Assembly: GCF_032191835.1 (NCBI RefSeq)
Contig: NC_083226.1
Location: forward strand, 108,562,001-108,626,000
Direction: 5' to 3'
DNA length: 64,000 nt
Source of the DNA: Heteronotia binoei
Taxonomy: Eukaryota
Part shown: positions 16,550 through 64,000 of the stretch, in pieces
Layout of the letters: every line of letters begins with the position of its first letter
Numbering within the stretch: the stretch's first letter is position 1
Notes under the pieces: model-generated
Told to the model about the DNA's origin: nothing
What the model saw: only the letters and a program-made list of their open reading frames with translations
The model's database searches: none
Translations under genes and position numbers: made by a program

Positions 16550-17410
16550 TGTTAGCTCTGGCTCCCAGCACCAGGAAGGCCTATAATCGCTCTGTTAAGC
16601 AGTTCCATGCATTTAGGGAACAGGTAGGGTTAGGCAGGCTTTGGCCTATTCCAGCGTTACACCTTATGCAGTTCTGCATCCATTTGAAGGGTAAGGGGCT
16701 TGTAGTTAAGTCTATAAGGGCCAAGCTTGCAGCATTAGCGTTTACGAGTAAAATAAAGGGTTTTGCGGACACCTCAAGCAATTTTAGACTTTGTAAGATG
16801 TTGGAGGGTTGGGCTCGGGAGCAGGGCCCTTGGCCCGAAACTCAGCAACCCTTTTCACCTTCTGTTTTAAGAGGATTGCAGGCAGTGTGGCCTGGAGTTT
16901 GATCCTCAAAGTTCAAGGCTTTATTATTCCAGGCTGCAGCTATGACAGCCTTTTTTGGGGCGCTCAAGGTTAGCGAGCTTGTGGTTAGCTCACACCATGA
17001 CTCTTCTGGCCGTTCCCTTCAGTCTGGTGATTTGAAAATAGCGGGTGACTATGTATCCATTAAGGTTCGACGTTCTAAGACCGATCAGACGCAGAGGGGT
17101 ACTGTTATCACCTTGGGTCCGTGCCTAGATCAGGAAATTTGCCCTGTGATTGCCCTGAAGAGGTACATTGCAGCATGGGGGGATGTGGCCAGCCCCTTAT
17201 TTTGTCATGAAGGCCGGTCACCTTTGACCAAGTTTCAGTTCTGGACCATCACCAGCAGGGCCTTGGAGAGGCTAGGGCTGGGTGGGGTCAGATTTGGGAC
17301 CCACTCTTTCCACATTGGGGTGGCATCTACAGCAGCAGCTTTGGGGATCCTGGAACGGCCATACAGCGGGTGGGCCATTGGCGGTCCACGGCATATAAGG
17401 GTTATGTTTG
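16545..17410 (+). pseudogene. Tyrosine recombinase, with catalytic Arg residues apparently mutated
   Basis: LAPSTRKAY N-terminus. AFFGALKVSEL has K where R is expected, RSKTDQ is present, and HSFHIG has H where R is expected. Confidence 0.9.
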
Positions 17411-17492
17411 CCCATTGGATACCCAACATGCTGATGTATGATACGTTGTTTCCAGTTTTGTGTGATTCATTCTGTTCCTTTCTGTTTTTTAG

Positions 17493-18044
17493 GTGCTGTG
17501 GCGCGGCATGAGAGGTGGAGGATTTTGATCGCTGGCCACAGCATGGTGTTTTGGGTAGCCCGTGAGGCCCGGCGTTCACCAATTGGATCGCCTTCGGTGG
17601 TCCGGGCTCCTGCCTCTCCTTTTCCAAGGGAGAAATGGTCCTCCACCTCACATTTTGGTTATTCACCTTGGTGGTAACAATCTGGGCTTGCTGAAGGGGA
17701 AGGCCCTTTCACTGCAGGCGATCGAAGACCTCAGGGTGATACAGAGCAGGTGGCCCGAGGTGCTGATTTTGTGGTCCGCCATCCTTCCCCGCAGGGTTTG
17801 GAGGGCTGCCTGGGACCCTGCGGGGATTGAAAGGGCTAGGCGCAAGGCCAATATGGCGATCAAGAAGGCACTGGGTGGAGGCTTGGGTGTTTACCTGCCT
17901 CACCCTGCTATAAGGTCGGAGTCAGCGGACCTATATCGGCAGGACGGTGTCCACCTGTCCGTAAAAGGTAACAGGGCATTTTTGCTTGAACTACGGCTGG
18001 GGCTATGGTTGGCCTTGGGCCAACCGGTGGGCCCAAGTGCCTAA
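17493..18044 (+). pseudogene. SGNH/GDSL hydrolase ORF of Ngaro; no ATG of its own, internal deletion/frameshift
   Basis: Blocks ILIAGHS, IHLGGNNLG and DGVH; preceded by a polypyrimidine-AG acceptor at 17491-17492. Confidence 0.88.
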
Positions 18045-18904
18045 GCGGAGGCCTGGCAATGTGGTGGCAGGAGTTTGATTTGGGCTATGTAGGTAACCAG
18101 TGAGCACCCTCGGTTTTCCCTGTTTTCAGGGGAGTAGCGGGATGGGACGGCAGCTGGGCTGTATGGCTCTCTGCGGTGATCCCCGCTATAGAGTTCCCTC
18201 CTCTGGCAGTCCGCTCCTGGGTGGGCGGCATTGCCACTTGGGGGTATTCCCAGCCTTCACCGGCCTAGCAGTAGCCAGTACAAACTGGCTTCTGCCGGGG
18301 GCTGGGTGGCTCGCCCTATCCAGACAATGAAGGGTCACGGGTTTACCTTGGCCTGTCCAGGAGTTTTTAGGTTGCCCCATGCCGTGTTTTGTTCAAAAAG
18401 TTGCCCTGTTTGTTTACCCAATACACCGTGTTGTCTTGTTCTTCCGACTGGTGGGGCAAATTCACTTTCATTTGCAGAGCTCAGCTGAGAAATAAAGCAC
18501 TGAGTGAGTAGAGATATACCAAACTGAGGCAACCCATTATTAAGTAGTTTCTGGTCTGTACCCCTTTAAAATTTGTTCAAAAATCAGAACTTCCATTTTG
18601 TTTGTAGTTGAGGAAGGCCTTTGTCTAAACTAAATGTCTACCACCATCGTTTCAGTTCTACCTATTTTTAGTCACACCAACATCTTACTGAATGGATTAT
18701 GAAAACTTGATATGTTGTTTAATTTCCCTCAAGGATCAACTTCTTCCTTAAAGAATGCCAAGTCCTTGACCCCATCCTGTGGGAATTAATATCACATTCT
18801 AATTAAATAAATATATCACAGCACAACCCACAAATTTTTCTACCTGAACAATGTAAATACTCAGCACATGTATACATGAAATAATAAATTATTATAATTA
18901 TTAC

Positions 18905-34289: not shown

Positions 34290-34450
34290 AGTAGTAGGTT
34301 AGGGTACCCTATCATCATCAAGCCGCATGCCAAAGTGACAGCTGCCCCACCCATACATGTGTGCACACACACAAAAACGAATGCCATATGCTTCCTTATG
34401 GGAGAGGGACGCAACAGTCCCAGAGGGGGCGGCTAGAAATCTACACCTAC
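34290..34450 (+). repeat. Maverick left TIR
   Basis: First 39 bp identical to the reverse complement of the right end; high identity beyond that. Confidence 0.95.
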
Positions 34451-34647
34451 AGTTTCTTATTAACATTAAAACCCATCCCTGTCTTCATTGTTGGGGATAA
34501 AGATTGCATCTTCTCCATGTAGGGGGAATGAAAACTGTCTCTCGTCCTCTGCAAGCACAGGGAGCTTGCCATTCTCCAGGCTGGAGAATCTATCTCTGAC
34601 TGTCAAAGCAAAACGCACATCCTTGCAAATAGAGTTGTCACAGAATC

Positions 34648-35408
34648 ATGTCTGGGGAAAGTGAATTCCAAAGTATCCTTTCCCACCTTCTAAGTCGATC
34701 GATCTTATATATTGCTAATTGTGAGACAAAAGTATTTAACCCCACAAACTGTCATAAAAGGTCAACTGTCCTAAAAAGGGCAGTGATTTCATGGTGAGAA
34801 CTGTTGAAATTTATGCCTCTCAGCCTTCTAATCTGATCGATCTTATATATTGCTAATTGTGAGACAAAAGTATTTGACCCCTCAAACTGTCCTAAAAGGT
34901 CAAGTGCTTAGACCGGGTCAAGATAAACAGAGGAAATTATGTTCTCACGTGATATATTTTCAGAGTCAAGTTGCCACATATTTTCTGACTCCCTCTCCCA
35001 CCCCCAAATAACTGTATTAACGATGTGTGAATGATCTTTAATGCTGCAAAACTTTTAAGACCAGCTGTAAACATACAACTTTCAGCATCATGGCAACACA
35101 GCTCAATGATTATCAAAGTAAGAATTTTTTGGGGGGGGGGTTGTGTGGATGTAAAACTACCAGCAGATAGACATTTAACAAATTTTACAGGTTCTTTTTT
35201 TTTTCATGACACAAACAAGCTGTAAAGATGTAAATGTAAAGTTTTCTGAATTAATTTGATCTGTTTTTTTTTTGACAGAGGTTATTTCACAAATGCACCC
35301 CCAGGCAGCTACTGTGTTTAAGGAGCCTGGTAAGAATATTAATTAATCAGCTCTTTGTTATTTTAATGGTTGGTTTTTTAGAAATGCCTTGTTTGCCAAA
35401 CAGATCTC

Positions 35409-35454
<46 letters not shown>

Positions 35455-36826
35455 TTACTTTTAACAGCATATGGGATTCAAAATCAATACTGCACAACTC
35501 TGTAATGCGGCAGTTTCTGCATTTTATATGAAACTAATGAAAGCTGTATAGGTTTTTAGGGAGGTTACTAGAATTTGGACGTTACAGTAAAGGTTTGTGT
35601 ATAAAAGATTTTAACACTTAAAGCTGCTTAGTTTTTACAACATTGTAATGCTGGAACAAGACTTGTAGAAGGTTTTATCAACAGATTTTAGGGGGTTTTG
35701 AATAATATTTTGACACACCTTAATACTCTGTGAAAAAGGCCCATTCATAGAAAGGAGCCCAACTCTCCAACACTTCCTGCATAGGTTCAACATTTAGAAC
35801 CACTGTCATGATGTCTATTTCAGCTGTTTCAGGTATTTTCTATAGTCGAGGCTTCCAACTTTTTCCACTGCTTAGCAAAATTATCCCAGCATTAGTTACC
35901 ATAAACCAACATACATATATGAACATATGAAGCTGCCTTATACTGAAGCAGACCCCTGATCCATCAGAGTCAGTATTGTCTACTCAGACTGGCAGTGGCT
36001 CTCCAGGGTCTGAAGCTGAGGTTTTTCACACCTACCTGCCTGGGTCCTTTTTAGTTGGAGATGCTGGGGATCGAACCTGAGACCTTCTGCTTACCAAGCA
36101 GATGCTCTACCACTGAGCTACCGTCCCTCCCCTTATGTATATCCCGTATGTATTATTAATTGGTTACAATTCTTGTAGAGTTTTTTTGTGGAGTCATATT
36201 TAACAAAAATAATTTAGTTCTAAACATCATAATCATCTTTTAAAACTTCCTGTACAAGTTTAATGTACTTTTGTCCAATACAATTGCGCAATTTTACATG
36301 ATCACAGCGTGTTTTTTGGTCTACATCTATGTATGTTTATTTTCTAGAATCTGTACCTGGAACATCACAAGCTGCTACGCCGTTGCAGGGTGATGGTGCA
36401 CCTCAAAAGAAACGTTCTGTGTCTACCAACAGCCAGAAGGAGCCTAAGCCTAAAAAGAGAAAAACTGACAGTGCAAGAACCAACGAAGGGTGTGTAATAA
36501 GCAATGGTGATCAACCTAAAAAGCAGATGGAATTCACTGAATCTCTTTTCAAACTCACTCAACAATTGAAAGAGAAAGATAATCTTATTAAGAAAGCCAA
36601 GGAGGCCTCTGATGTTGTCTGCAACAAGATCTCCAAGCTGTTTGACAACTATGAGACCGAATTGATTAAAAATTATGCAAAGTACCCAGCGTGTGCTGAT
36701 AGCGCTATACAGTACGGGGGGGCTCTGCCCTACAATGTCTCTGAAGGGGTAAGGGGCTCCCCAGACCTGATGTCTGTTCAAGCTGATGAGGTGGGGGGGG
36801 GAGGATGGAGAAGCACATTCTGCTAG
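34648..36826 (+). CDS. Predicted spliced Maverick left-end ORF (exons 34648-34660, 35279-35329, 36348 onward), possibly the pPolB N-terminus
   Basis: Phase-1 GT-AG junctions join MSGEK-VISQMHPQAATVFKEPE-SVPGTSQAAT... in frame; contains an NLS-like PKPKKRK and a coiled-coil-like stretch. Confidence 0.55.
35910..36132 (-). mobile_element. tRNA-derived SINE inserted in the Maverick
   Basis: Minus head GGGGAGGGACGGTAGCTCAGTGGTAGAGC...GGTTCGATCCCCAGC (A/B boxes) and an (ATATGTTC)-like tail. Confidence 0.85.
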
Positions 36827-39800
36827 CACCAATGTGGTTGGGGAGGGAGCAGCAGAGAGATGTGCAACCTCTCCATCACCTCCCAAAGTCTCCGACAGCC
36901 CCGATGGTGTGGAGGAGGTAAAGGCGGTGCTGGGGGGTCCAAGTGCCTTCCCACAACCTCCCGAAGTCTATGTGGAATGTGTGAGATGGTGGCAGAGGCC
37001 CTATGAAAGATTTAGGTCTTTAGTAACCAGCGAGGAATTTCGCTTTGTAAATTTAGAACACGTGCGTTCCTTTGCACATGCCTTGGAGGTGCTAACAAGG
37101 GGGATCCAGGATGTTCTGGATGAGATTAACGGCGGCATAGATGAGGGAGATTTTGTTCAAATGCGCCTATCGGGGGAAGGTCTACAAAACCCATTATTTT
37201 CATTTAAGAAAAAGAAAGACCATCTCAGCGCTGATGAGTTTCTGGAGTTTGTGGTAAATACGCTGCAAAGCAATAGAGAAATACTCCGCACCGACACACT
37301 GCGCTTAATTGTGACTGTTCCAAAGCCCCTGAGGGCGGTGCTCATCGTAGTATCAAGTTTATCCCTTACAGTTCAATAATTGAAAAAAAAATGGCGTTTT
37401 TTGGTAGATTTTTCAGATTATAACAACAATCTATGCTTCACGGCGGGGCTCATGGGTGTAATGAAAAGAGTGGGGGATCTTTCTGACGTAATCCTTTTAG
37501 AGGCAGCTAGAAAATTAGGATGGTATGATCAGAAAAAGGTGGGTCTCTGTGACATATCAGCAGTTGAGGAACATTTAAAAGTGAACATTCATGTTGTGTT
37601 GTGTTCTGATAAGGGATGGAGTATATTTAAAACGCAGCCCCCAAAATATCCTGAGACCCATTTTATGCTTTTACATAGTGATCATTTTTATGGCATTCTT
37701 CACATTAAGAGATTTTTTTGGGTCTAGGAATTATTGCAGGTATTGTTACACCCTATACAACCAATACCATAATTGTTCTCAATTTTGTAGAATGTGTTCC
37801 ACCGCAGAATGTAAAACGATCCTAGGGACACCTAAGAAATGTCCCAACTGCTGCTTGTATTGTAGCAGCGACTTTTGTTTTAAGAGGCATGGTGAGCTGG
37901 CGGCCCAAGATGAAACAGCATGTCCCTCCAGGGCATGGTGTACAAAACGCAGTACTTACAAGGACGTTATGCATCTGTTCGAAGAGTGTTATAGGAGGGC
38001 ATGTAGACAATGTGGTGGGAAGCTGGAGGATGATGAAGATTTCCACAGTCTGTGTTATTTAGAACCTCTGAAACAGCCCAATGTTTCGTCAAAATACATA
38101 TTTTATGATTTTGAATGCACACAAGACAACGTAGGTGGGGTGCATTGGCCCAATTATGTTTTTGCTAAAGCCTTGGGGGAAGATAAAAAATGGCGAGCCA
38201 GTGGTAAATCTTGGGAATTCAGGGGTGAAACGTGTGTTTATCAGTTTGTTAACACAATTACAGCACAAAAGCAGTTTAAGCATACCACCTTCATTGCCCA
38301 TAACTCCAAGGCTTACGATTCTTACTTTATTGTTAAGCAGCTGATTGAGGAGAGGTTGGATCCCAAACTGGTAGCCTTAGGGGGAAAGCTAATGTGCGTG
38401 AACATAAAAGGTCTCAACATAAAATTCATTGATTCGTTGAACCATCTTCCCATGGTCCTCTCTAAGCTGCCAAAAGTTCTAGGATTTTCCCAGAGTAAGG
38501 GCTATTTTTGTCATTTTTTCAACACTGAGGAAAATCATTCTTATGTGGGACTTTTACCATAGCCCAAATACTACGGGATAGACCTGATGATGCCCGAAGA
38601 AAGGGAGGCTTTCTTAAAATGGCACGAGGAGAAAAAGTCTAGAATTTTTGATCTCCAAAAAGAACTAGCTTTCTATTGCCAGCAAGATGTGAACATTCTG
38701 GAACAGGCTTGTACGTTGAACCGAACCGAAATTATGAGCATGACAGCCCAGGATGGTCTCAGTATAGATCCCCTACAATATCTCATATTGGTGGGGGTCT
38801 GTTTAGCCATGTACAGGTTTAATTTTCTGACACCTCTCTCGGTGTCAGTTTGGTGTAGTGGTTAAGTGTGCGGACTCTTATCTGGGAGAACCGGGTTTGA
38901 TTCCCCACTCCTCCACTTGCACCTGCTAGCATGGCCTTGGGTCAGCCATAGCTCTGGCAGAGGTTGTCCTTGAAAGGGCAGCTGCTGTGAGAGCCCTCTC
39001 CAGCCCCACCCACCTCACAGGGTGTCTGTTGTGGGGGAGGGAGATAAAGGAGACTGTGAGCCGCTCTGAGACTCTTCGGAGTGGAGGGCGGGATATAAAT
39101 CCAATATCATCTTCTTCTTCTTTGGTGGCCATTCCTCCTCCAGACCACTATCACAGGGAAACAAAGAGGTTTTCAACTTCTTCTATTCAGTGGCTCTGCT
39201 ACTTGGAGTACTCTGAAAAGATCCAAATACAACACTCGTTAAAGGGACAGGAATGTAAGGTTGGGAAGTATTTCCTAGATGGGTTTGCGGTGCTGAATGG
39301 GAAGAAAACAGCTTTTGAGTTTAACGGCTGCTATTGGCACGGCTGTCCACAATGTTATGAACCTAACAAAATCAATAGATTAGCAGGGAAAACATTTGAC
39401 GAGCTTTACTGTGCTACAAGGCGGAAGTATGATTACCTTAAAAGGATGGGGTTTCAAGTTGAGAGCATATGGGAGCACAAGTGGAACCGTCTTAAGAACA
39501 CTGACGAGGCTGTGAAAGCTTTTCTTAAAGCAGCAGACTTTCCTGATCCTCTGATTCCTAGAGATGCACTTTTGGGGGGGCGGACTAATGCCATTACCCT
39601 GTACTACAAAGCTGGAGAAGGAAAGCAAATACACTACTACGATTTCACCAGTCTGTACCCATTTGTGAATGCGACAAAGGTGTAACCTCTAGGCCACCCC
39701 GAGATCGTTCAAAATAATTTTGTGCCTCTCACAGAATATTTTGGATTGGCTAAGGTTAAAGTTTATCCCCTGAGAGGTCTTTTTTCCCCTGTGTTGCCAT

Positions 39801-40889
39801 CCTGGGTGGGTGGGAAGCTGTTTTTTACACTATGCAGGACCTGCGCTGAAACAAGACAACAGGAGACATGTTGGCATTCTGATGAGGAGAGGGCTCTGAC
39901 GGGCATGTGGGTCACCGTAGAACTGCATGTGGCTCTTGCCAAAGGCTACAGGGTTGTGAAAATCTTTGAAGTTTGGCATTTTGAGGGGAAAAGCAGGCAG
40001 CTCTTTGCAAAATATATTAAAAGACATCTCAGGCAGAAGCAGGAATCTTCTGGCTACCCAGATTGGTATGTGACACAGGCTGATAAAGAGAAATACATTG
40101 CTGATTTTTACAAAAAGGAAGGTGTCCTTCTCCACCCCAAGCATATCTGCCCCAACCCCGCAAAGCGCCAGATTGCTAAGCTTTCCCTCAATTCTTTGTG
40201 GGGTAAATTTGCACAGAGAACGAACTTGCCAAACACACCAAACACTGTGAGAGACCCAAACCGCTTTTTTGAGCGGGTATATTCAGAGAATTACAAGCCC
40301 ACAGCCTGCAGTTTCATCTGCGATGATGTAGCCTGGGTGCCTTGGAAGCACGCTGGGGAGCGTTTGACAGCTCCCAGATACACAAATGTGTTCATAGCTG
40401 CTTTTACCACAGCTTATGCATGATTAGAACTCCACGCTCTTATCAAAAGTTTAGGAGAGAGGTGCTTGTACTCAGATACTGATTCCATGATCTTTGTGAG
40501 CCGTCCCTGTGACTCTAATTCTCCCCCTAGTATGCTATCTAGGTCAGCTGAGTGAAGTGCCCGCGGGGCAGTATATAATGGAGTTTGTTTCTGCGGGTCC
40601 TAAGACTTACGGATACAAGCTGTCAGGAGGGGAAGGGTGTCTGAAAGTTAAGGGTGTTACTCTGAATGCCTCTAATAGTGAAAAGATCCATTTTGACAGT
40701 TTGAAGGATTTGGTTTTCACGCACGTTTCTGGCTCTGAGCCTGGTGAGATCACGGTGAGTCACCCAGGCACAGTCACAGACAAAAAGAACTTTGTTATTA
40801 AAACAAAACTTCTTAAAAAAACTCAGAAGGTGGTTTATGACAAACGAGTGCTCGGGGAGGGGTTTAAGAGTCTGCCCTACGGTTATTAA
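36786..40889 (+). pseudogene. polB: Protein-primed family B DNA polymerase with N-terminal TP-like/vOTU-like region, disrupted
   Basis: YDFEC, AHNSKAYDSYF, FIDSLNHL, GGRT, YDFTSLYP, KLSLNSLWGKF, YSDTD (~40468), GPKTYGY; several frameshifts and stops plus a SINE insertion. Confidence 0.96.
38841..39120 (+). mobile_element. MIR/Ther-1-like (Squam3-type) SINE inserted in pPolB
   Basis: Head CAGTTTGGTGTAGTGGTTAAG..GGGTTTGATTCCCC and a (TCT)n tail; the pPolB reading NFLTPLS|LVAIPPP is split by it. Confidence 0.9.
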
Positions 40890-40890
40890 A

Positions 40891-41522
40891 ATGGATAAAA
40901 GGTGGCGCCTTCTTTCTCGGCCATCCTGGCAGGACCCAGCAATTGCGGGAAAAGTTATTTTATAAAAAAATTTACTTGTGAACGCAGTCTATGCTTTCTG
41001 TCATGCCTGAAAATATTGTGTGGTTTTACGCATGCCGGCAACCATTGTATGAAGAATTGCTCAGACACTATTCTTTTATAAAGTTTGTAGAGGATTTGCC
41101 CTCCAATTTGAATGATGATGAATTGCTACCTCTTAATAAAATAAACCTCGTCATTGTGGATGATCTGATGGCATGTGCCTCTGATAATCAGAAATCTGAG
41201 TATTATTTACATCATACAGAATCTATTCTGCCAGGGGGAAAGCAGCAGAACCATCAATCTGAACACCAAGTACATGGTGTTATTTAAAAACCCCAGAAAT
41301 AAATTGCAAATAGCGACTCTAGCCAGACAGATGTACCCCGGGAAAGCGGCCTTTTTTATGGAGGCTTATGAAGATGCCACAGGAAAGCCCTTCGACTACC
41401 TGATGGTGGATTTAAACGCGACCACGCTGGAATCTTACAGACTTCGTACAGGGATGTTCCCCCCAGACCTCCCGGTCTGCTATGTTATTAAAAAAAAAGT
41501 CGGGGGGATTAAAAGGTGCTGA
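40891..41522 (+). pseudogene. A32/FtsK-like packaging ATPase, frameshifted
   Basis: Walker A AGPSNCGKS, Walker B LVIVDDLM, then QNLF..G..SRTINLNTKYMVLFKNPR. Confidence 0.93.
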
Positions 41523-41573
41523 TGCTCAACTCTGCAGGGCTTTTAAGGAGAGTCAGCCTGGCACGGAGGAAGC

Positions 41574-41899
41574 ATGTCTGCATGCTTAAAGAGAAACGGA
41601 AGTCTCCTGAGACTCATCTCCAAATCACCCCCTCATCTAAGGAATGCTATTCTGTGCGCTGCTCCAAACGATTTAATAAAGGCTAACGATTTAATAAACA
41701 TGCTGAAAGGCATCATCCCCCTGTCACAGTGGCAGAAGACTGTCCTGCAATTAAAACGGTCCCTGATTAAAACCCTGAGCAGCATTAAAACTCCCCTTAC
41801 AAAGAAGAAGAAACTGGTGAGACAGCCGGGGGGGGCCTTATAGGGTCCTTGCTGGGTTTTGTTCTGCCTTTGCTCACCAGCTTTTTAACACCCTCCTGA
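41574..41899 (+). pseudogene. Small basic Maverick core-type protein (PM-like) with an amphipathic C-terminus; frameshift in a G8 run
   Basis: 89-aa basic ORF; a frame change at 41828-41835 extends it with LIGSLLGFVLPLLTSFLTPS* to a TGA overlapping the next ATG. Confidence 0.7.
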
Positions 41900-42513
41900 T
41901 GGAACATGCGGAGAAGATGTACCTGGTCCCTAGCCAGCAGTTGGATCGTCTAACTAATCAGCAGCCCTCTGAGAGTGAATCCATCAGGCCCGCCATTGTG
42001 CACTCTCTAGACAAGGAGATGAAAACGGTTCTAGAGAGGGAGGATTTGTCCAAATACCAGGAGGCCAAGGTCTACACCGCTCTTCTTCAGAAATATCTCA
42101 CGCACGTCAGAATGGGTGAGGAAGAGAAAACTAAGCTGGATCTGTATCTCCCGCAAACTGAGTTAACACCTGATGTCAATAAAAAAAATGCAACCGTTTT
42201 TGAAAAGGTGATAGAGAATCTACCACATCAAAACAGGAACAATGCCTGTGTGCTGCTAAAGAAAATGGATCAAAACAAAGAAATTGCCTCTTGGGATGAA
42301 AGGGGAACTTTTCTTTACAGAGGAGCCCCTGTTGCTGGAAGCCACCTGCTTGACTTGGTCAAGGCTATTACTCAGACTCGCCCTCCCTCTTCTGCCCTCT
42401 CACCTAAAGGCATGGACGTGTTTATGAGGGCTCTGGCCAAACTCAACGTCCCCTCTTCAGTGGTGGGCACCCCGGCTGCTAGAAAAATGCTGGAAGACCT
42501 GAAAAGCCCATAG
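41899..42513 (+). CDS. Conserved Maverick protein of unknown function (PW-like by position)
   Basis: 204-aa open ORF (MEHAEKMYLVP...SWDERGTFLYRG); naming rests on gene order only. Confidence 0.65.
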   Translation: MEHAEKMYLVPSQQLDRLTNQQPSESESIRPAIVHSLDKEMKTVLEREDLSKYQEAKVYTALLQKYLTHVRMGEEEKTKLDLYLPQTELTPDVNKKNATVFEKVIENLPHQNRNNACVLLKKMDQNKEIASWDERGTFLYRGAPVAGSHLLDLVKAITQTRPPSSALSPKGMDVFMRALAKLNVPSSVVGTPAARKMLEDLKSP

Positions 42514-42651
42514 CCTCCGGCTTTAAAGAGCACGCTCGTAATTTCTTCTAAAAAAAAAAAAACAGCCTGCGTGGTTGACTATGGAAGAATAATTTTTTTT
42601 GTAAATGCAAATCTTTTGGCTCTGATTATTTTATGGACAAAAATGGACATT

Positions 42652-43203
42652 TTAATATCCCAACAGATTTTCATTAGGGGGACCACAAGAAACACAGGTT
42701 TGGGTGCGGGTGTACTTGTTTTGTAAAGTCCTTGAATTGTTCAGGGTGCTTTTTGCAAAACTCACGACCATCCTGTTGTTCAGTTTGGGAGTGGGAGAAT
42801 ACATCTTCACAATCTCGTGAAAGGGGGCAGCATTGCAGTGGTGGTGGAGAAAAAACCGGCAGTGCTGTCCGCATGTGTTAGATGTTGATCCTTGGAGATG
42901 GTTCCTCTGGAAACGCACCTCGTTAGAATTCTTGTTTAAAAAGTCCATAATGGCAGGCGGAAAGAGGGGGCTAGAGGGTGGGTTGCCGAATGAGTAAAAA
43001 AACTTGGAGGTCCCGGGGTCGCTGAGATAAATAGCCAGCCAATGTTCTCCCGGGAGGTAGTGGGGATGAGTGTTCACCACTAAAGAGATGGGCCTCTGGG
43101 ACAGCCTTTCAACAGGTAGCTGATCGCTGGGGAAGATGCTCAAGAAGCTTTTTCGAGTGTGAGGATTGTCTAGTAAGACACGTGTTAGCTGGACAGTATC
43201 CAT
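42652..43203 (-). CDS. Adenain-like cysteine protease (catalytic Asp appears mutated)
   Basis: VVNTHPHYLPGEHWLAIY, FFYSFG (Asp expected where Tyr is), LQG..SNTCGQHC. Confidence 0.92.
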   Translation of the reverse strand: MDTVQLTRVLLDNPHTRKSFLSIFPSDQLPVERLSQRPISLVVNTHPHYLPGEHWLAIYLSDPGTSKFFYSFGNPPSSPLFPPAIMDFLNKNSNEVRFQRNHLQGSTSNTCGQHCRFFLHHHCNAAPFHEIVKMYSPTPKLNNRMVVSFAKSTLNNSRTLQNKYTRTQTCVSCGPPNENLLGY

Positions 43204-43204
43204 G

Positions 43205-44506
43205 TTACATATAGTCAAAGAGCACGTTGCGGTTTTGGTTGATCTCGATGACGTTGTCAAACACCCCGTACACGATCAAATTCACCGTTTGGGGGAGTGC
43301 ATCTGCAAAGCATATTTCAGCTCTCAGGTTCCCCGTTTTGATCAGGGAGTAATCGTCTGTACATTCCTGATCGGGAGAGAGGTCAAAGGCAAACAGAGTG
43401 TACTCTTTCCGATACTCGTCACGATCTATTAGAAGCAGTCTATCCTGAAGATGCTTCCCTGCAGTTTGCACCAAACTCATGTATTCTCTCACGTTGTTCC
43501 CCATGACAAAGTCGGGCTGGAAGGGTTTGTGGGGGATCTGCTCCCCGTCCACATATAGGGCTGCAAAGTTAATGTTGTAATCTTTAAAGTGGAAAGGGTT
43601 TTTGGTGAAACCGCCGCTGAAAGCATCATTGTCCACCAGAGCCATGACCACCATTTTGGGAAGCTGTCCCAAAAACAAGTTGTCTTGGTTGCTTACCCAG
43701 GCTCCTGCTGAGATACTGAACACTTTCATGCTGACACGGTCCACAGGGTATTTTGCTGTGGAGGTCATCAGTGCTTCAGCATGGGCCAGTTGGACACTTG
43801 AGGACACCCTCACTTTTTTCACAAAGAGGGAGGCTGAATTTATCTGGAGCTTAAAACGTGTCCCGTCTCCTACACTGCTCATCAAGCAGAAGGTGTCCCT
43901 GCTGCGGGTTAGTTTGATTTTCACATCCACTCTGTTTAGTAGCAATTTTTCTTGAAAAAATAGGTCCGCGTGGAGATGCCCTAAAAAGTCTATCGCCCTG
44001 CTCTCGGCCATTAGTTCTTCTCTCTTGGCAAACCCCTTGTTGACGGGGTTTCGTGCTGGCCAGCTGTATCCTTATAAAAACCACCCGCTGAAAATTATGT
44101 GGCTAGGGTTTCCTCGCTGTAATTGAGCAGAGTTTCAATCATTGCCCTATAGGGGGTAGCAATTATTGCTCTGGCTGATCAGCCGATCTCCGACAGTCAC
44201 ATCCAGCTGACTGAATATGGATGCTATCGGGTAGTTCACCAGCACTACTCTAGTGTCAGCAGGGAGGTCTATGCCATTTTTTCGAGTAATTTTGCATTTC
44301 ACATAGAGGAGTGTATTGTTTAAATCGATGTAACCTTCCCCATTACCAGCTATGTAGAACTCTATAGGCGCAGATCCTGTAAGGGCTGATAGGGGTGGGA
44401 CTTCGATATACAGGCTTTTCTCGATGCAAGTTTGTGTCAGGGCTATCTGGAACAGATTGAGCTCCGACTTCACACACTCTTCCGAGCTGCAGTGAATGAA
44501 TGCCAT
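43205..44506 (-). pseudogene. Double jelly-roll major capsid protein, frameshifted
   Basis: MAFIHCSSEECVKSELNLF..., HLHADLFFQEKLLLN, NPFHFKDYNINF, YTLFAFDLSPD. Confidence 0.93.
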
Positions 44507-44513
44507 GGCCCGA

Positions 44514-44978
44514 TTATAAAATGTCTTTGACTCCCCCGTGAGGAGTCCTCTTCTTCTTCCTCTTTCCTCCCCTCTTCCTCAGTGCCTTCTGCTTCTTGGG
44601 GACCCCAAGACTTCTTTTAATGGGTCCTGGGGGGCCCCTACGTGTAGTAGACCATTTTCGTTTAAGTCCGCCCCTTCTTTTAAGATACAGAAAGCCCGAT
44701 CCCTCCTGGGGGTCAAGTTTATTCATAACTCGACATGTCACATGGCCCACGACATCTTGAGCAATATTGCGAGCTGCAGTTTTCAAGTGCGGCTTGATAA
44801 TGTCCACCCCTTTTTTAAAAAGCAGTATGGCCATTCGAAAAAGCCTCCGAAAAATCCCTCCAACTCCTGTCCCATACATAACGGGTGCACCATGAAATCC
44901 AGGGATAGTGTAACCGGCTTGTGAACAGTAATAGCCCCTAAACAGCGCTGGGTCCCCATAATCTTTCACCATCACCAT
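44514..44978 (-). CDS. Basic Maverick core-type protein (PZ-like by position)
   Basis: YYCSQAG..PGFHG..MYGTGVGGIFRRLFR and a Lys/Arg-rich C-terminus. Confidence 0.7.
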   Translation of the reverse strand: MVMVKDYGDPALFRGYYCSQAGYTIPGFHGAPVMYGTGVGGIFRRLFRMAILLFKKGVDIIKPHLKTAARNIAQDVVGHVTCRVMNKLDPQEGSGFLYLKRRGGLKRKWSTTRRGPPGPIKRSLGVPKKQKALRKRGGKRKKKRTPHGGVKDIL

Positions 44979-45706
44979 TTTTTCCACGGTCGTAAGTGCA
45001 ACCTTATGATGACCTTGCCGTAACGGAATGACACGGGTTGATTCTGATCCGTCTTTATTTCTACACGGATTGTTTCAATATGCTGTTTGTTGACGGGGAC
45101 GTAGTGGGGCTCATCATAGATGACTGTGACAAAATCGTGAGTTTTCCCTCTTATCAGAACAAAGCACAGAAGGGGCATGGCTGTGTCCCCTACCAGCTGG
45201 TGTTCTATGATATCGGTATATAGGTACAGAGAATTAAACCCTTTGGTAATATCCGTTGCATGTTGAATGTTTTTGAACGGCGTGTTAGGGGGAATCCCCA
45301 GCAGCAGCGCTAATTCGTTACCCATGATGAAGTGTGTAACGCTCGAACTGACAAATCTAGTTTTCCCTGTTGTTTGGTCATAAAGGAAACGCACATTGGG
45401 TGGTGTATCGGCATGTTTCCGTACAGCCGTCTGCATGGCGTCTAATATATGGCGAACATCTTCATAATAGCCCTGCTTCACCTGGAATTCGTTTCTAGTA
45501 ATCTCGGTACAAATTTGGAACATCTATGGCTTACTGATCGTGTACCAGGTGTGGGGGTACTGAATTTCCACCAATCCCACTTCCCACTCCCCCCTCAAAT
45601 CCAGAGGCTTAAACAAGCGCACCGTGAAAGCTAAAGTGGTGTTTTCAGGAAATAGGTTCTTAGAAGCGTTGCTGGGTAGCGGGATGTAAAAACCGTCATC
45701 TTCCAT
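44972..45706 (-). pseudogene. Minor capsid (penton) protein, one frameshift
   Basis: FYIPLPSNAS..WEVGLVEIQYPHTW, SLYLYTDIIEHQLVGD...PLL, HYVPV. Confidence 0.9.
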
Positions 45707-46799
45707 CCTGTTCAACGATGTCTTCAGCTGGGACCCAGCTGTTAAATTTGGGTGGCCACCCCCTCCACTTCACTAAGATCTGCTTCTGTTTCTTGTTTGT
45801 CCGGGTTTTTATAATTTTCTCTAGCTTGTATGTTCTGTCTTTCCAACGAGTCACTTTCTGCAACTCCTCCGTGTAAAACCCTCCTAGGATTGGTTCACCG
45901 TCAAAATCTATCAGGTGGTACACGGGCCTCTCGCCCCTTCCCCCCACCTCTTCTATAATAAAAATTTCTTCTGTGAAACTCTGTTCATAACCCTTCTCAA
46001 ATGTCCCCTTTGTTCTAGAGACCCTCACACAGTCCCCTTTTCTAAACAGAACTTGTGTTTCTTTTTTGGGAGAACCCAGGACCGCACCATACACACACCT
46101 CCACACTGTAAGCGTGTTAGAGGGTTTGACATCTACAGGCAGCGTCTGAATAGTTCTATGGTGACTATGGTTATAACTTTTGACTAGGTCTTGTAACACA
46201 TCCATATACTTAAAAGTGTTATTGTGTGTAAAATATCTCCACATCCTGGTCTTTAAAGTTCTATTAAACCTCTCCGCTACGGCCGCCTTCACCTCATTGT
46301 TGGTGACAAAATGGCGAACTCCATGTTCCTTTAACAGAGCACCCACTTTTTAATAGAGAAACTCCTTGCCCCTGTCTGTTTGCAGCTTTTGAGGGACCCT
46401 CCCTGATCCTCTGAAAAAGCTTTTAAAAGCAGTTGCCACCTCGGCTCCACCTTTGTCTTTCAGAGGCACCATCCACGTGTATTTAGACGGGATGTCTATC
46501 ACTGTCAGAATATATTTATAGCCCCTGTTGTAATTGAAATATTGTTGCATATCTACCAAATCCGCCTGCCACTGTTCGTCAACATTCCCCACGATTACCT
46601 TGTTCCTTTTGAAACGCACCCTGACCGGTTTATGCATACTGTATGCGCCCTGATCATCCAACCACTCTTTCACCTCATTTCTGCTCAGCTTATACCCCCT
46701 CTTAGATGCTGCCTGAAATAGCTGTTCAATACCCCCAAAACTACCAACCTCCCGCGGATTATAATAAATCCCTTTTAACACATCCCCGTGGTGCGTCAT
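45696..46799 (-). pseudogene. Retroviral-like integrase with C-terminal chromodomain, one frameshift near 46348
   Basis: QWQADLVDM, LQTDRGKEF, AERFNRTLK, ILVKWRGWPPKFNSWV. Confidence 0.95.
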
Positions 46800-46871
46800 G
46801 ACACTTTGCTCTCTTTTGCCACAATGAAAGTATTTTTTATTATGCTGCATATATACAGAAAAACTGGATCT

Positions 46872-47970
46872 TCACTCTGACTTGTTCTGATTCTCATCTT
46901 TTTCTCCGAGTTGTTTCTGCTTCTCAGCATGCTCCATGGCTTTCCTTTGCAGAAATTTACACAGGTCTTTCCCCTTTACTTCAAACACCGTAAACTTTGG
47001 AACATCTACAGACACACTTTGGGCACCGTATCCCTCCTTTTGAAACAGGGCAACCAGTCTGCAGCAGTAGCAACAGCCTGGGTTTATCTCCTCACTAATG
47101 CATCTGGCCAATAGTGCAAAATCAACAGGTCTGTCCCACACCTGTGTTCAAAGAAGAAAACACATTTTTAGTTCAAATATTGCTTTGTTACATTCACACA
47201 GTTGGTGCAGTTTTATTACACTTACATCAGGGAATAAAGCCTCAATGCATGGGCGGTTGTCTTCTTCTTCCCCCTCCTTGGCTATATCAGCATCCATTGG
47301 AGGCACATGTGTTTGCGCTTCATAAGCCGGGGGTTCCCTCGCCTTTTCCACAGCTTCAGGCACCGTGTCTGCTCCAAAATCTTCAGAGGTATCCTCCACG
47401 TCCGCTCCAGAATCACCGATGGTACCGAGCTCAGCATCTGCTAGGGAATCTTCCTCATCATCTCTTTCATCGCCTGAATCTTGAAAGTGGGCTAGACCCC
47501 CACAGTATGGGTAGTGAAAGGAGTCAGGCCCCCCTGAGTTGACAGCTGCCACATTCTCTATCTAGAAGTTTGAAGAAGCAAAAAAAAAAAAATTAGTATC
47601 CCGCCTCATGAGCATGCCCCCCAATTCCACACACCTCATTTTTAGGTCTTACATTCAGATAGAGCATTTCCTCCACAATCTCCATATTTTCTTGTGCCTC
47701 CCCTCCATGTTCTGATTCCTTGCCATCGCTTTTGGGTGAAAGATGCATCATCTCCTCGTAAACAGGTTCCTCACCAGCATCGGCTTTCCCCCCATCGGTC
47801 TCCACTGGGTTCATATAATCATGAACAGCCTGTTCCAAAGCCGGAACCCCGTCAGCCTCCACAGCATTCATTTCTTCATAAAATGATGGTTCAACAGAGC
47901 CGGGAAACCAAAAGCAACAAATGCTTGCCATGGAGTGGGGGGGGGTCTCCCCTATTTCAAAGAGTTCCAT
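46872..47970 (-). CDS. Predicted 3-exon acidic accessory protein (exons 47970 or 47931 to 47635, 47561-47226, 47141-46872)
   Basis: Two GT-AG phase-0 introns (47562-47634, 47142-47225) fuse three ORFs in frame; AATAAA on minus at 46836-46841. Confidence 0.75.
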
Positions 47971-48289
47971 GGGAAAGCACCACCGACACTCATTGGTGTG
48001 TTTAAATGTCGCAGGGGACACGCCCTGTGACAACCAGGGTCGGCTGACAACATGTCAGATATATGGTACAACGACATTTCTGGCACTTGCACTTCCCACC
48101 TGTAAACTATTGACTTGGGGGGGGGGGTCCTAAAGCAATGTGTCTGTTTTTGAAAACTGTTGCATCTCCACATTTCTCTAAATAACGTCTGTGTTGCAAA
48201 ACACGCTTTTCCTCAAACAATATGAAGCCTGCTACACCAGTGGCTCACCCTCCTTTCCCCCCTTAGGAAACAGCAGGCATTCCTTGGGG

Positions 48290-48450
48290 GGGGGGTGGAT
48301 TTCTAGCCGCCCCCTTGGGGACTGTTGCATCACTCCCCCCATAAGGAAACATACGGCGTTTGTTTTTGTGTGTGTGCGCGCATGTGTGGGCAGGGCAGCT
48401 GTCACTTTGGAATGCGGCTTGATGATGATAGGGTACCCTAACCTACTACT
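48290..48450 (-). repeat. Maverick right TIR
   Basis: Reverse complement of 34290-34450. Confidence 0.95.
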
Positions 48451-58800: not shown

Positions 58801-59762
58801 GTTTTAGTGGTTGGCTGTTTGCAGTTGTTTGAAGTTGTTTGTATTGTATAGTTTTATTTTATGATTTTATTATTGTTTTGAGTTATTGCAGTGCAAGCTG
58901 CCTTAACAACTCTTCTAAAGGTAAGATATATAAAAAGGGCCCGGCCCTTCCCAGCCAAGCCGGCATCGCCGGTGTTCAGGCTGGAGGCCGTCTTTGCCCC
59001 CTCGGAAGGAGGGAGCAACAGAACGCTCGGCCCGGTACATCCGGGTCTGTTTCTGGGCATGGCGTCAGGGCTATATAAGCCCCGGCCCCGCCCAGAGCTC
59101 TTCAGTTCCTTTTGGGCTCTCTGGGTGAGAGCCACGTGCAGCATCGGCGCGCTTAAGGACTAGGCCTTGAACGTTGGTGGACGGTGTCGACGAGTCCGAG
59201 GCGCGTGCGGCGGCAGTGTGGCGCTGGCGGCGCCTGAGGCGCAAGCGGCAGCAGCAGCTGTGAGGCGCGAGCGCCGGGAGATGAGCATTGGGAGAGCTTC
59301 TCTTCTGTATTGAGTCTGGTGAAGTGCTTGGGGGTGCAATCGGCGGCCGTAGGCACTTGCGGCAGCCATTTTGAGGGGCGCACTTAGCTGGGCTGCAGGG
59401 GAGCGGGAAGAGCAGTGTGCGCGGCAGCCATTTTAAGGGCTTTTTGTTCTTTTTGGCAGCAAGGGGGAGGAGGAGCGAGTGCGGCAGCCATTTTGGTTGG
59501 GAAAAAACGAAGTTTGGATCGACATAGAGGCTAATAATATACATCGTTGGGGTGTTCGTGGGGTCCCTTAGGTGGATATCACCCCCCCACCCCCACCCTT
59601 TCTGCCCCTTACCAGGCCTGGTAGTCTGCTCCCTTCTCATTACTGTTTGGGTGTGGAGTGTCTGAGGCGGGGGGGGGGGGTTACGGCTTATAGAGCCACC
59701 TATCCTTCTGTGAACACCGGCACCCTCCCTACTATTTGCACTGTGCCCGCTGGCAGTTGGAA

Positions 59763-59892
59763 GAGCCTCTTGCCACAGAGTGTTAAAGCTGCAGTACTGC
59801 AGTCCCAGGCTCTGCTCATGATCTGAGTCGATCCCTGGCGGAAGCTGGGTGTTCAGGTAGCTGGCAAGAGGTTGACTCAGCTTTCTATCTTG
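59763..59892 (+). mobile_element. Sauria SINE 5' portion inside the Ngaro leader
   Basis: Matches the reverse complement of the tRNA-like head of 33750-34039. Confidence 0.75.
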
Positions 59893-60639
59893 GAGCTGCT
59901 GGGGGTCTTGCTTGATCTTTCTCTCCCCTAGTTGTGTCGGGTGGCTAAAGGGTGCATTAACCTTCTGGGCACCCATCCACTTATTGTGTCAATTAGGCTT
60001 GACAGAGGAACTTCAGACCGGCGGGGAAGGTGTCACACAGTTACTGCTGTGGGCCTGGCTGCTGGTTGGAGGCGTCCTGATGGCACCCATGAAAGAGCAG
60101 GGCAGGTCTAAGGGCAAACAGCCCGCCCGCCCGGCCCGGGGGCGAGGCCTGCAGCCCGGTCCTGCTGAAGAGCCGGGGCAGGGGAAGCAGGTCCGAAAGG
60201 CCATTATGGGCCAGTTAGAGGCCCTCGAGCAGGAAAGAGTTGCTAGGGGTGCTCCCATTTGGGAGGGGCGTCGTCATGCCTCTGGGCACCCGGCGCGGCT
60301 AACTTTTGAGACGGAGGTGCTGGCCCGCTTGTCTGCTTTACAGGGCGGCGCACCTGGGCCCGAACCTCAATTGGAACCGGACCAGGACGATGGTCCAGAC
60401 AAGGGTCCGTCGGGTGAACAGGCGAGCAGCGGTGCATCTGGAGGCGGAGTGCAGCAGACCCCGGGCGGGGCTGGAACGCCCTTGGGTATTGGTGGTAAGC
60501 TCCTGTTGCAGCAGACACAAGGGTGGCCCTGGGGTCCTATTCAAATGCCATCCCTCCCCCCGGCGGCAGGGGGTGGGGCTTGGCGCACTGGGCTGTCCGG
60601 AACTCCCGCCGAGCGGTGGGGTTCCGGGCTGCCTTTGGC

Positions 60640-61270
60640 TTGGGGCATGCAGGGCTGCACAAGTTTGGCCAGTTTGGCATGGGGATGCGGTGGCGGTGGC
60701 TGCTGCTGCTGCAAGGCAGCACGAGTTCGGCCAGTTCGGCATGGGGACGTGGCGGCGGCTGCTGCTGCAGGGCGGCACGAGTTTGGCCAGTTTGGCTTGG
60801 GGACGCGGCAGCGGTGGCTGCTGCTGCTGCAAGGCAGTACGAGTTCGGCCAGTTTGGCATGGGGACGCGGCGGCGGCTACTGCTGCAGGGCGGCACGAGT
60901 TCGGCCAGTTTGGCTTGGGGACGTGGCGGCGGTGGCTGCTGCTGCAAGGCAGCACAAGTTCGGCCAGTTCGGCATGGGGACGCGGCTGCTGCTGCAGGGC
61001 AGCAAGAGTTTGGCCAGTTCGGCGTGGGGACGTGGCAGCGGCTGCTGCTGCTGTTGCTTCAGGGAAGCATGAGTTTGGCCAGTTCGGCATGGGGATGCGG
61101 CGGCGGCTGCTGCTGCAGGGCAGCACGAGTTTGGCCAGTTTGGCTTGGGGACCTGGCGGCGGTGGCCCTGCTGCTGCAAGGCATCACGAGTTTGGCCAGT
61201 TCGGCGTGGGGACGCGGCGGCTGCTGCTGCTGCAGGGCAGCACGAGTTTGGCCAGTTCCTGCTTGGGGAT
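60640..61270. repeat. GC-rich minisatellite, 11 units of ~51-64 bp, inside Ngaro ORF1
   Basis: Core GCACGAGTT(T/C)GGCCAGTT(T/C)GGC(A/T/G)TGGGGA repeated 11 times, separated by GCG/GCT runs. Confidence 0.95.
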
Positions 61271-64000
61271 GCGGAGTGGTATCGCGGGGGTGCAGAGAGC
61301 CTGAGTTTTGGGGGTTGGAGGGCTCACGGTGAGGCTGGAGGGCCTCATGCCCCCCTTTCCCCCCCATGGTGGCTGAGCTGAGGGGGTGGTTTGAGGAGTG
61401 TGGGTTCCTTTTGCAATCTTTTGAGTTGTGGGTAGACGCCCCCCCCCTCCGCTTGTGGTCTTGGAGAGGGGCATTGGCTTGGTTGCAGGGCATCTGCTTA
61501 GCAAGCCGAGGGGCCCAGTTGCTATCCCCAACAGCCCCAACTAAAAAAGGGTCCAGGCAAATGGGCATAGAAAACCTCAGCTGGAGGCCCAGTGAGCTGC
61601 TGCCAATCTGTGCAGACAATACTGAATCTGACGGACCCACGGTCTGATTCTGTATAAGGCAGCTTCATATGGTCATATGTTAGTTTAATGTTCTCCCCTT
61701 TACCTCACAGCGGGCCAGCCGGTTCAATCCTGGCTGTTATGCTGGGAGTTTGCTTCTAAGGGAGTGTGCCCCAGAAAACCCTGCAATTTCAAGCACAAGT
61801 GTCCACTTTGCAGTGGGGCTCACGCCTTCTCCGCCTGTAGCAGGTCGAAGCCGAGGCCCGGGGGTAGGCGCCCCGGCGGGGGCGGTGGTGGCAGTCAGCA
61901 GCCCCCTGGAAAAGGGGCCCAGCCCCATTCGACTGATGGTACTCAGTAAATTATTGAGTAAGTACCCACGTAAAATAGATGGCCAGTATCTGTCAGAGGG
62001 GTTTTCTTTGGGGTTTCGGATCCCTTATCAGGGGCCTAGGGCCCCCCCTTTTTGGCTGCTAATCTTCCGTCAGTGGCGGGTCTTGAGCATGCAGTTAGGG
62101 CTAAGATCGCCAAAGAGTGTCAGGAGGGCAGGGTCTTAGGACCCTTTGATACGCCACCTGTACCCACATTGTGCGTATCTCCCTTTGGGGTGGGCCAGGG
62201 GAATATCGCCTCATTCTTCACCGGTTCTACCCCAGAGGGGCGTCGGTAAATTATGGAATTATGTTCGGTACGGTATACTTCCTTTGACCAGTCGGTCAAA
62301 GTACTGTGGGGTTTCAAGTACATCAAGTCGGCATTTCGCCTCTTGCCAGTTCATCCCAAGGATTTCGAGCTCCTGGGTTTTTTTTGTTTTGAGAGTAAAT
62401 TTTACATGGATCGCGCCCTCCCGATGGGGTGCTCGGTCTCCTGCGCTGCATTCGAGCGCTTTAGCTCCTTGGTTGAGTGGGCATTACAGGATAGGACCGG
62501 GCTTAATGACACGGCGCACTACCGGGGCGACTACCTTTTGTCGGTCCAGCGGACACAAGGTGATGCGTCTGGCTCTTACATGCTTTTCAGAAGTTGGCCA
62601 TCAAGCTGGGGTGAGCAACTTGTCAACCAGTTTGTGCTTTTCTGGGGCGATAACATGGCGGTAGTTCATGTTATCAACTCCTTGACCTCTAAGTCGTGTT
62701 GGTGATGAACCCGGTTAGGTTATTCACACTTCGTTACCTCCGGTGGAATATTTAGTTCCTGACAGGGCACGTACCCGGAGGCTGCAATGGGGTGGTGGAC
62801 GCTCTATCTCGCCAATAGATGGAGCGCTTTCAGCAGCTCGCCCCGGAAGTGGACTCGCGGCCGGCGCAAATGCCCCTGGACCTCTGGTAATTTGGGAAGC
62901 TGAAGCTGGTAGGGACATTCAGCTGGCTTTGGCACCTAGTACCAGAAGGGCTTATGGTAGAGCGGCTTCCCTATTCCGGGAGTTTCGGAGGGCCGCTGCG
63001 CTGCAGGATTGCTGGCCGATTTCGACGGCTCATATTATGCAATTCTGCGTGTTTCAGAAAGAGAGGTTTGGGGTTGAGGACTATTTGGGGCCAACTGGCG
63101 GCGTTGGCCTTTATTAGTAAAGCCCATGGGTTCGTTGAGAAGACCTACTAACAGAAGGGCATACGACAGAGCGGCTTCCCAATTCCGGGCATTTGGGAGC
63201 ACCGCGGGACTGCATTTTAGTTGGCTGGTTCCATGGCATGGGTTATGCAGTTCCCCTTTCGGGGCCGCTCTGCTTCATGCGGCCTTGTTGATGGCCTTTT
63301 TCGGCGCTATGTATTAGCGAGTTGGTTGTGCAGTCTAAGACTGACACTGCGGGGCGGGCGCCCCAGGCCAGGGATGTCAACATTGGTTGGCCTGTGGAGG
63401 GCGGCAGCCTTTTGAACCAGGTGCGCCCGTTGGTCACCTAGGGGGTATTTGTGCAGGGCGGTGGTTTCATCACCTCTTGGTTATTATCTGTTCTGACAAT
63501 TTTCTGTTTTTCAGGTGCTGTGGCTCATAGTGAGAGGCATCGTGTTCTCATCTGCGCGCACAGCAGGGTGTCCAGGCGGCCCATCAAGCCAGGCGGTCTC
63601 CAACGGGCACCCAGCTGGGCTGCAGCGACGGGGCAGTTGGGGAATGGCTGGGTCGCCGGGGGCTGGTGTTGGCTGGGGATTAGGCCATCGTAGTGCGGAG
63701 AGAGGAGGGCACCTCCTCCGCACATCTGGGTCATTCACTTGGGTGGTTTCAGGGGAGCACCTATGGCCTAGCACCAAGTGTGCAGGTGGTCTGTATGAAC
63801 TGCAGATGGGCTACATGGCTCAGTGCGGGGACTGCAGATCACGGAACAGCCTCACCTGAGCGTATCTTTCCATGGGGGATTGACGCTAGCACAGGTGGTG
63901 AATGGCTCGGGGCCTGGCCGCTCAGCAACAACCTGAATCTGGCGAGCTTGTGCTGGGGGCAGGGTGGCTCGCCCTTTGGACAAGGCGGGGTCAGGGTGTG

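Follow-up and report, generated by a model that had tools for sequence, protein, structure and literature searches.

A spliced accessory gene of gecko Mavericks encodes a putative lipid-anchored phosphotyrosine scaffold with conserved YxxM sites

Viral mimics of SH2-domain ligands are already known as a kind. Murine polyomavirus middle T is described as a membrane-bound, kinase-less scaffold that is produced from a spliced early gene and binds p85 at Y315 (PMC10740393), and the herpes simplex virus 1 (HSV-1) protein VP11/12 (UL46) is described as carrying tyrosine motifs, binding Src-family kinases and p85, and driving Akt activation (PMC7824580). According to a preprint (bioRxiv 10.1101/2025.03.22.644753), PI3K-alpha is activated when a HER3 bis-phosphopeptide with pYEEM engages the tandem SH2 domains of p85. 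For the Maverick-related adintoviruses, the account by Starrett et al. (PMC8502044) describes accessory genes termed Oncoids, whose defining features are the LxCxE/CK2 and CR1 motifs for Rb binding and whose usual position is upstream of PolB.

This study analyzed a spliced accessory gene of a Maverick element in a 64,000-nucleotide stretch of the Heteronotia binoei genome (contig NC_083226.1, positions 108,562,001 to 108,626,000; hereafter the window). Judging from sequence comparisons, we lean modestly toward the view that its product was a phosphotyrosine scaffold, tethered through a lipid anchor, that recruited class IA PI3K. The predicted protein resembles polyomavirus middle T (murine, hamster, and Merkel cell MT/ALTO) in its spliced gene and acidic SH2-ligand tyrosine motifs. 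However, the two show no sequence match, and middle T has a C-terminal transmembrane anchor, whereas the gecko anchor would be N-terminal cysteine acylation; the exons of the window contain neither a transmembrane segment (maximum hydropathy 0.56-1.03) nor a PxxP kinase-docking motif. VP11/12 is a herpesvirus tegument protein with additional Grb2 and Shc sites, whereas the gecko family conserves YxxM alone, and no homology between the two was detected. The gecko protein would thus act like middle T or VP11/12 while belonging to neither family. Epstein-Barr virus LMP2A and herpesvirus saimiri Tip, both transmembrane proteins, are likewise viral mimics of phosphotyrosine platforms, but the PPxY arm of LMP2A has no conserved counterpart in the gecko family. 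The tails of HER3, IRS, and BCAP share the tandem YxxM arrangement, and the HER3 peptide contains an identical pYEEM; these are host proteins, and a four-residue match would represent motif mimicry at most, not descent. With the Oncoids, the gecko gene shares its status as a Maverick accessory gene and its combination of CxxC motifs and short linear motifs of the kind known from small DNA tumour viruses; it differs in lying upstream of the integrase, whereas Oncoids lie mostly upstream of PolB, and in conserving tyrosine motifs and a cysteine anchor.

The host element is a broken Maverick/Polinton copy of approximately 14 kb (34290..48450, no strand assigned). Its terminal inverted repeats (left, 34290..34447, plus strand; right, 48292..48450, minus strand) were 159 nt in length and 88.7% identical, its ends read AGTAGT...ACTACT, that is, (AGT)2, and it was flanked by a near-perfect 6-bp target duplication with one mismatch. 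These are features of vertebrate Mavericks as given in PMC8097293. The expected genes were present in broken form, namely an rve integrase with a chromodomain (45696..46793, minus strand; PF00665, E=1.9e-9; PF00385, E=9e-12), a protein-primed polymerase B (37585..40423, plus strand; PF03175, best E=6.6e-12), and a weak adenain-type protease (42652..43275, minus strand; PF00770, E=0.0047, short of the curated cut-off). The in-frame stop inside the integrase and the splitting of PolB into several pieces identified the copy as broken. Open reading frames were found at the places expected for the major and minor capsid proteins and the packaging ATPase, and none of them had a Pfam or PHROGs match. 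The accessory gene is flanked by the right terminus and the integrase, a position that Barreat and Katzourakis describe as an accessory region (PMC8097293).

Other features of the window were also recorded. A second accessory gene, apparently with short exons, was seen at the left end of the element (35200-36830, plus strand), with homologous DNA in locus L098, and an open reading frame in the same interval (36302-36826) contained basic, nuclear-signal-like stretches. A short host-type repeat appeared to be inserted in the PolB region (38846-39122) and was 97% identical to a stretch of L103. Two matches to the POL2 open reading frame at divergent loci probably came from this repeat. Maverick core genes were not found near the D copies defined below, at 13 divergent-lineage loci, although L102 matched the left region of the element (76% identity over 548 nt). 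Outside the Maverick, the regions 8700-18100 and 59000-64000 were GC-rich and dense in open reading frames and are probably other mobile elements; the latter contained a tandem repeat (60631-61283).

The accessory gene comprised three exons on the minus strand at the right end of the element, starting from an ATG at 47931, and all three were stop-free and in phase 0 with AG acceptors. Exon 1 (47653..47931, minus strand, 93 codons) contained the cysteine cluster, the acidic repeats, and two YEEM motifs. It was followed by a predicted GT-AG, phase-0 intron of 91 nt (47562..47652, minus strand), which ranged from 85 to 128 nt across copies. Exon 2 (47226..47561, minus strand, 112 codons) encoded a degenerate cysteine module, an acidic linker, and the first part of the last cysteine module. 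The second predicted intron, also GT-AG and in phase 0 (47142..47225, minus strand, 84 nt), separated the same two flanks that are joined in the database model P0001. Exon 3 (46872..47141, minus strand, 89 codons plus stop) completed this module, which scored 51.8 bits with the module HMM and was supported by the family alignment, and added a C-terminal extension. A poly(A) signal (AATAAA, 46836..46841, minus strand) followed; 17 of the 19 readable A copies had it no more than 70 nt from the stop.

Two donors were considered for exon 1. The GT of the donor at 47652 (GTAAG) was retained in 21/24 same-type copies, compared with only 15/24 for the alternative at 47634, and in the sister copy L033 all four donors were GTAAG. 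The sequence pattern thus indicates that exon 1 more likely ends at 47653. With this donor, the product comprises 294 aa instead of 300 aa and the last motif of exon 1 reads YLN|I, which replaces the YLNV proposed in the sequence-only reading.

Transcript evidence was obtained from L033, a C copy, for which one of 19 RNA contigs joined position 1179 to 1258 with GT..AG ends, exactly matching the 78-nt intron predicted there (1181-1258). The shorter flank of the joint spans 30 letters, and this splice evidence consists of one contig from one RNA run of one study. Other contigs crossed two introns unspliced. For the introns of the window itself, 36 RNA contigs from one run contained no splice joint. 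In the young C copies, intron 1 (L033:860-943) was 84 nt long, open in frame, and hydrophobic, an open frame that other lineages did not preserve; the spliced L033 contig kept part of this intron, and such retention could add a membrane-seeking segment.

The motifs listed in the sequence-only reading were all present at the positions given there. The product begins with MASICCFWF and contains a CC pair within the aromatic cysteine cluster (47905..47931, minus strand), predicted to be a palmitoylation anchor; the window copy has Ser where 21/24 A copies hold a third Cys, and the CC pair was kept in 24/24 A copies. The tyrosine codons at 47880 and 47760 begin YEEM sites 1 (47869..47880) and 2 (47749..47760), those at 47817 and 47661 begin YMNP (47806..47817) and YLN (47653..47661), PPAY (47322..47333) lies in the acidic linker of exon 2, and CCYCC (47061..47075) lies in exon 3, all on the minus strand. 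The internal duplication proposed for exon 1 was real, but YMNP belongs to a degenerate middle repeat in which the Tyr aligns two positions later than that of the repeated YEEM. Against 20,000 composition shuffles, the motifs were more frequent than expected (two YxxM in exon 1, P=0.025; two YxN in exon 1, P=0.008; one PPxY in exon 2, P=0.018). Because of the internal repeat, these figures overstate the enrichment, and conservation is therefore the better test.

To this end, copies of the gene within the same genome (G000) were compared; a DNA search returned at least 55 matches and a protein search at least 222. The comparison covered 24 window-like A copies (90-94% identity to the window), 10 B and 9 C copies whose middle part is longer, 3 D copies, which are divergent, and 8 additional loci with shuffled module order. 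The C copies were 97-99.8% identical to the copy L032, which indicates that they are young. Site 1 read YxxM in 23/24 A, 10/10 B, 9/9 C, and 2/3 D copies, and site 2 did so in 8/10 B, 9/9 C, and 3/3 D copies but only 3/24 A copies, where 19 copies read YxxL, 2 lacked the Tyr, and Leu occupied +3 in 21/24. Most of the A copies L002-L024 would read YLD|I at the first splice junction, a feature confined to that lineage; the same tetrapeptide, YLDI, is the one through which murine middle T is reported to bind PLC-gamma1 (PMC10740393). Inverted duplications of element ends were seen at L038/L039 and L099/L100, one of them 2.3 kb at 99% identity.

The motifs that had been assigned to Grb2/Ras and Nedd4 signalling fared differently. 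The Tyr of YMNP was poorly kept across copies, and YMNP itself was present in only 2/24 A, 3/10 B, and 0/9 C copies; at the end of exon 1, Asn was present in 2/24, most copies reading YLD. Conserved pYxN sites for Grb2 recruitment were thus not found, each site being limited to 2/24 copies. PPxY was present in 13/21 readable A, 3/6 readable B, and 0/9 C copies, and the acidic tail containing it had a pN/pS of 1.11 between the window and L032, that is, about 1. Neither of these two proposed arms was upheld.

Word searches returned matches limited to gene models named from H. binoei and Gekko kuhli. A profile search of 1.84 billion representatives returned 18 matches; ten of the new ones were looked up, of which nine were gecko gene models (Gekko, Paroedura picta, Sphaerodactylus townsendi, and Eublepharis macularius) and one was a spurious bacterial IPT/TIG repeat protein (P0026), which was excluded together with its cluster mate P0037 before all counts. 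The family is unnamed and, among the identified matches, confined to geckos of five genera; the identity of its database members to P0001 ranged from 22 to 52%. Gekko, Paroedura, Sphaerodactylus, and Eublepharis together cover three gecko families.

An acidic YxxM was present in 24/43 family proteins and absent from 19/43, whereas PPxY was found in 0/43 and YxN was absent from 32/43. One or two acidic [IV]YxxM sites persisted across the family in a Src-substrate-like context, 10-40 residues apart. Among 17 representatives, Met occupied +3 in 13 of 15 acidic [IVT]-Y-[EDV] sites, compared with 4/90 for other tyrosines; the context was defined post hoc and the sites are homologous, so this count describes a pattern and is not a clean test. 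The variants YEDM, YVEM, YEKM, and YDEM changed at +1 or +2 and kept the Tyr and Met. In L032, L081, and P0006, both YEEM motifs were identical while the surrounding segment was only 41-49% identical, and the two tyrosines were 30, 10, and 19 residues apart, respectively; a spacing of 40 was also seen. In the Eublepharis models P0028 and P0038-P0045, a second YEEM was located internally between modules, and the C-terminal tail was unrelated, with repeated basic and cysteine-rich stretches. The acidic region that holds the conserved SH2-ligand-type YxxM was predicted to be disordered in the low-confidence AlphaFold model of P0001 (pLDDT 41).

Cysteine clusters near an N-terminus, with aromatic or basic neighbours, typically serve as palmitoylation anchors. 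In three lineages (L032, L081, and P0006), the cluster stood 16 residues before site 1 without a gap. An aromatic CxC cluster was present 15-35 residues before the first site in seven models from three genera, and in two Sphaerodactylus models a polybasic stretch preceded FFCRC. The models of 17 of the 24 YxxM-bearing proteins had no N-terminal CxC; many database models are fragmentary or begin at a Met further downstream. The recurrence of the cysteine cluster and YxxM in homologues from four other gecko genera at 22-50% identity, as compared at the sequence level, thus speaks for the PI3K arm of the original proposal.

Selection was assessed using uncorrected pN/pS, with the window compared with L032. 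The ratio was 0.28 for exon 1 (Fisher p=0.02), 0.45 for exon 3 (p=0.09), and 0.19 for the integrase; between C and D copies, it was 0.45-0.48 for the last exon (p about 3e-5), and the remaining module exons ranged from 0.34 to 0.85. For the three lineages L032, L081, and P0006, the gap-free block from the cysteine cluster to site 1 yielded 0.45-0.46 (p=0.07 and 0.04). Within the A copies, exon 1 had a pN/pS of 1.17, as expected for decay after insertion. By these ratios, exon 1 is under purifying selection, and the accessory gene is real and under selection.

These results bear on whether the motifs have any function, because they could have arisen incidentally from a T-rich leader and an acidic tandem repeat. 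The YxN and PPxY motifs are indeed unconserved, and the cysteine cluster is encoded by T/G-rich DNA and lies inside an inverted repeat in one lineage. However, the purifying selection on exon 1, the gap-free spacing, and the retention at 22-50% identity in other genera argue against such an origin, which we consider very improbable overall; for YxxM, the sequence comparisons largely refute it.

The inverted repeat concerns the D element L085/L091 (L101), in which one arm of a 483-nt repeat stops precisely at an ATG immediately behind the cysteine cluster; the second arm runs on into an unrelated gene. This divergent element was approximately 7 kb in length, its core genes were not detected, and the repeat reached the ATG of both terminal genes. 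The two unrelated genes would thus share a promoter and a cysteine-cluster leader. In the D element, the cluster either belongs to an untranslated leader or serves both genes as an anchor, translated from an in-frame ATG further upstream. In the A, B, and C copies, an ATG stands directly before the cluster. This position, the gap-free block in three lineages, and its pN/pS of about 0.45 suggest that the cluster is coding.

The part of the family that is best conserved by sequence comparison, more so than the tyrosine motifs, is a C..CCxxC module that the sequence-only reading had missed. The CCYCC cluster named there is present, but it is a variant of this repeated module and not a stand-alone feature. 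P0001 and P0005 each contained four CCxxC motifs, each approximately 30 residues after a Cys-Val/Ile, and in a leave-one-out test all eight modules beat 500/500 shuffles. The module occurs in one to four copies per gene, each split by a phase-0 intron; these introns and the varying number and order of modules suggest exon shuffling. Two modules are left in the window, namely the last one and, where exon 2 begins, a degenerate one. In L071-L077 and L082, an exon 2 of the A type, carrying the module variant CxCxxC, was joined to further modules, an arrangement that shows repeated gain, loss, and reordering.

The last module was modelled as a small alpha/beta domain with a pLDDT of 73.9, one of five models above 70. 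A fold search of this module against 48,161 chains yielded none at Z>=5 (best Z 3.8, rmsd 4.2, 57 aligned), and BFVD viral structures yielded none at E<=0.001. Pfam searches of the exons and homologues returned nothing at cut-off, PDB sequence searches with three alignments returned a single match in an acidic stretch (E=0.035), ESM Atlas searches with exon 3 and P0005 residues 50-260 returned no usable match, an IMG/VR scan returned 28 pattern matches of which none was confirmed, and a phage tblastn returned no match; a viral Foldseek search with the P0001 model was uninformative. The four cysteines point to zinc binding; the modules probably coordinate zinc and engage a second partner. Each unit has one CCxxC and an upstream Cys; the Oncoid type carries paired CxxC zinc motifs.

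The modules also raise the alternative of a nuclear regulator resembling E1A or the Oncoids, in which the acidic, aromatic N-terminus would serve as an activation domain and the CxxC modules would bind zinc and cell-cycle or chromatin factors. The terminal position of the gene, its splicing, the Asp and Glu content of 24-29% in exons 1 and 2, and the CxxC modules are compatible with such a protein; in addition, there are V/I-x-x-L-[FY] cores similar to the Rb-binding CR1, and P0001-type proteins contain IxCxE. Nevertheless, the published CR1 pattern, (DEN)(LIMV)xx(LM)(FY), did not occur in the window exons, P0001, P0005, or P0006, where only five-residue core matches preceded by Cys were seen, and [LI]xCxE was absent from the window and all Gekko models. 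The Oncoid LxCxE with its CK2 site was likewise absent from these, and elsewhere occurrences were scattered and did not align. An activation domain would also hardly be expected to fix Met at +3 or retain an N-terminal aromatic CxC. We regard this alternative as improbable.

The residues around the conserved sites bear on two further explanations. A Src substrate peptide, EEEIYGEF, is given in PMC7298416, with acidic residues and Ile at -1; the upstream acidic residues and Ile/Val at -1 of the gecko sites resemble this standard Src substrate. The same tyrosines could instead remain unphosphorylated. YEEM and YEEL both fit the YxxPhi consensus, and the last position of a sorting signal may be L, I, F, V, or M. 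As a membrane-tethered trafficking adaptor, the protein would present YxxM/YxxL to clathrin adaptors while its modules capture a host surface protein and draw it into endosomes, in the manner of Nef-type proteins. This would explain the Met-to-Leu change at site 2 in 21/24 A copies and is compatible with the acidic clusters and the cysteine anchor. We nonetheless consider it unlikely, given that Met was kept in 13/15 sites across genera although sorting signals tolerate other residues, and that the acidic residues before Ile/Val-Tyr suit a kinase site.

Alternatively, the tyrosines may be phosphorylated and serve as a decoy that dampens signalling or as a ligand for a different SH2 partner, such as a Src-family kinase, PLC-gamma, or SHP2. 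Hamster middle T is reported to bind Fyn through YEEI and murine middle T to bind PLC-gamma1 through YLDI (PMC10740393), and the A copies would for the most part carry YEEL (site 2) and YLD|I (first junction). Both readings were limited to A-type and related copies here, whereas Met at +3 is the rule of the family, and we judge this explanation, too, to have only a small chance of being correct.

For the PI3K scaffold that we favor, the following sequence of events would apply. Host acyltransferases would palmitoylate the cysteine cluster and thereby place the protein at the inner face of the membrane, a Src-family kinase would phosphorylate the tyrosines of the YxxM sites, and the SH2 domains of p85 would bind one or two pYxxM. 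The resulting Akt signalling may keep the infected cell alive or growing during replication of the element.

Whether vertebrate Mavericks are viruses or transposons is described as open, with no virion seen, and the genes of intact elements are reported to be without introns (PMC8097293). The gecko gene is a multi-intron, exon-shuffled accessory gene in a group reported as intronless, and it carries a new small cysteine module. We found no SH2-ligand or PI3K mimic in a Maverick in the literature searched; the supplements of PMC8502044 and PMC8097293 may already annotate the gene. The proposal offers a test on one protein, namely p85 binding and Akt activation. If it is correct, Mavericks would join the DNA viruses that have converged on PI3K hijacking. 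A cytoplasmic signalling mimic under purifying selection would make little sense for a pure germline transposon and would instead point to infection and cell manipulation. It is a reasonable possibility, though one we hold at somewhat below even chances, that gecko Mavericks were true viruses with an independently evolved middle-T-like oncoprotein, which would combine a palmitoylated, Src-phosphorylated PI3K activator with an exon-shuffled array of an undescribed zinc module, and which would have been kept across the gecko radiation and would still be transcribed and spliced from young germline copies.
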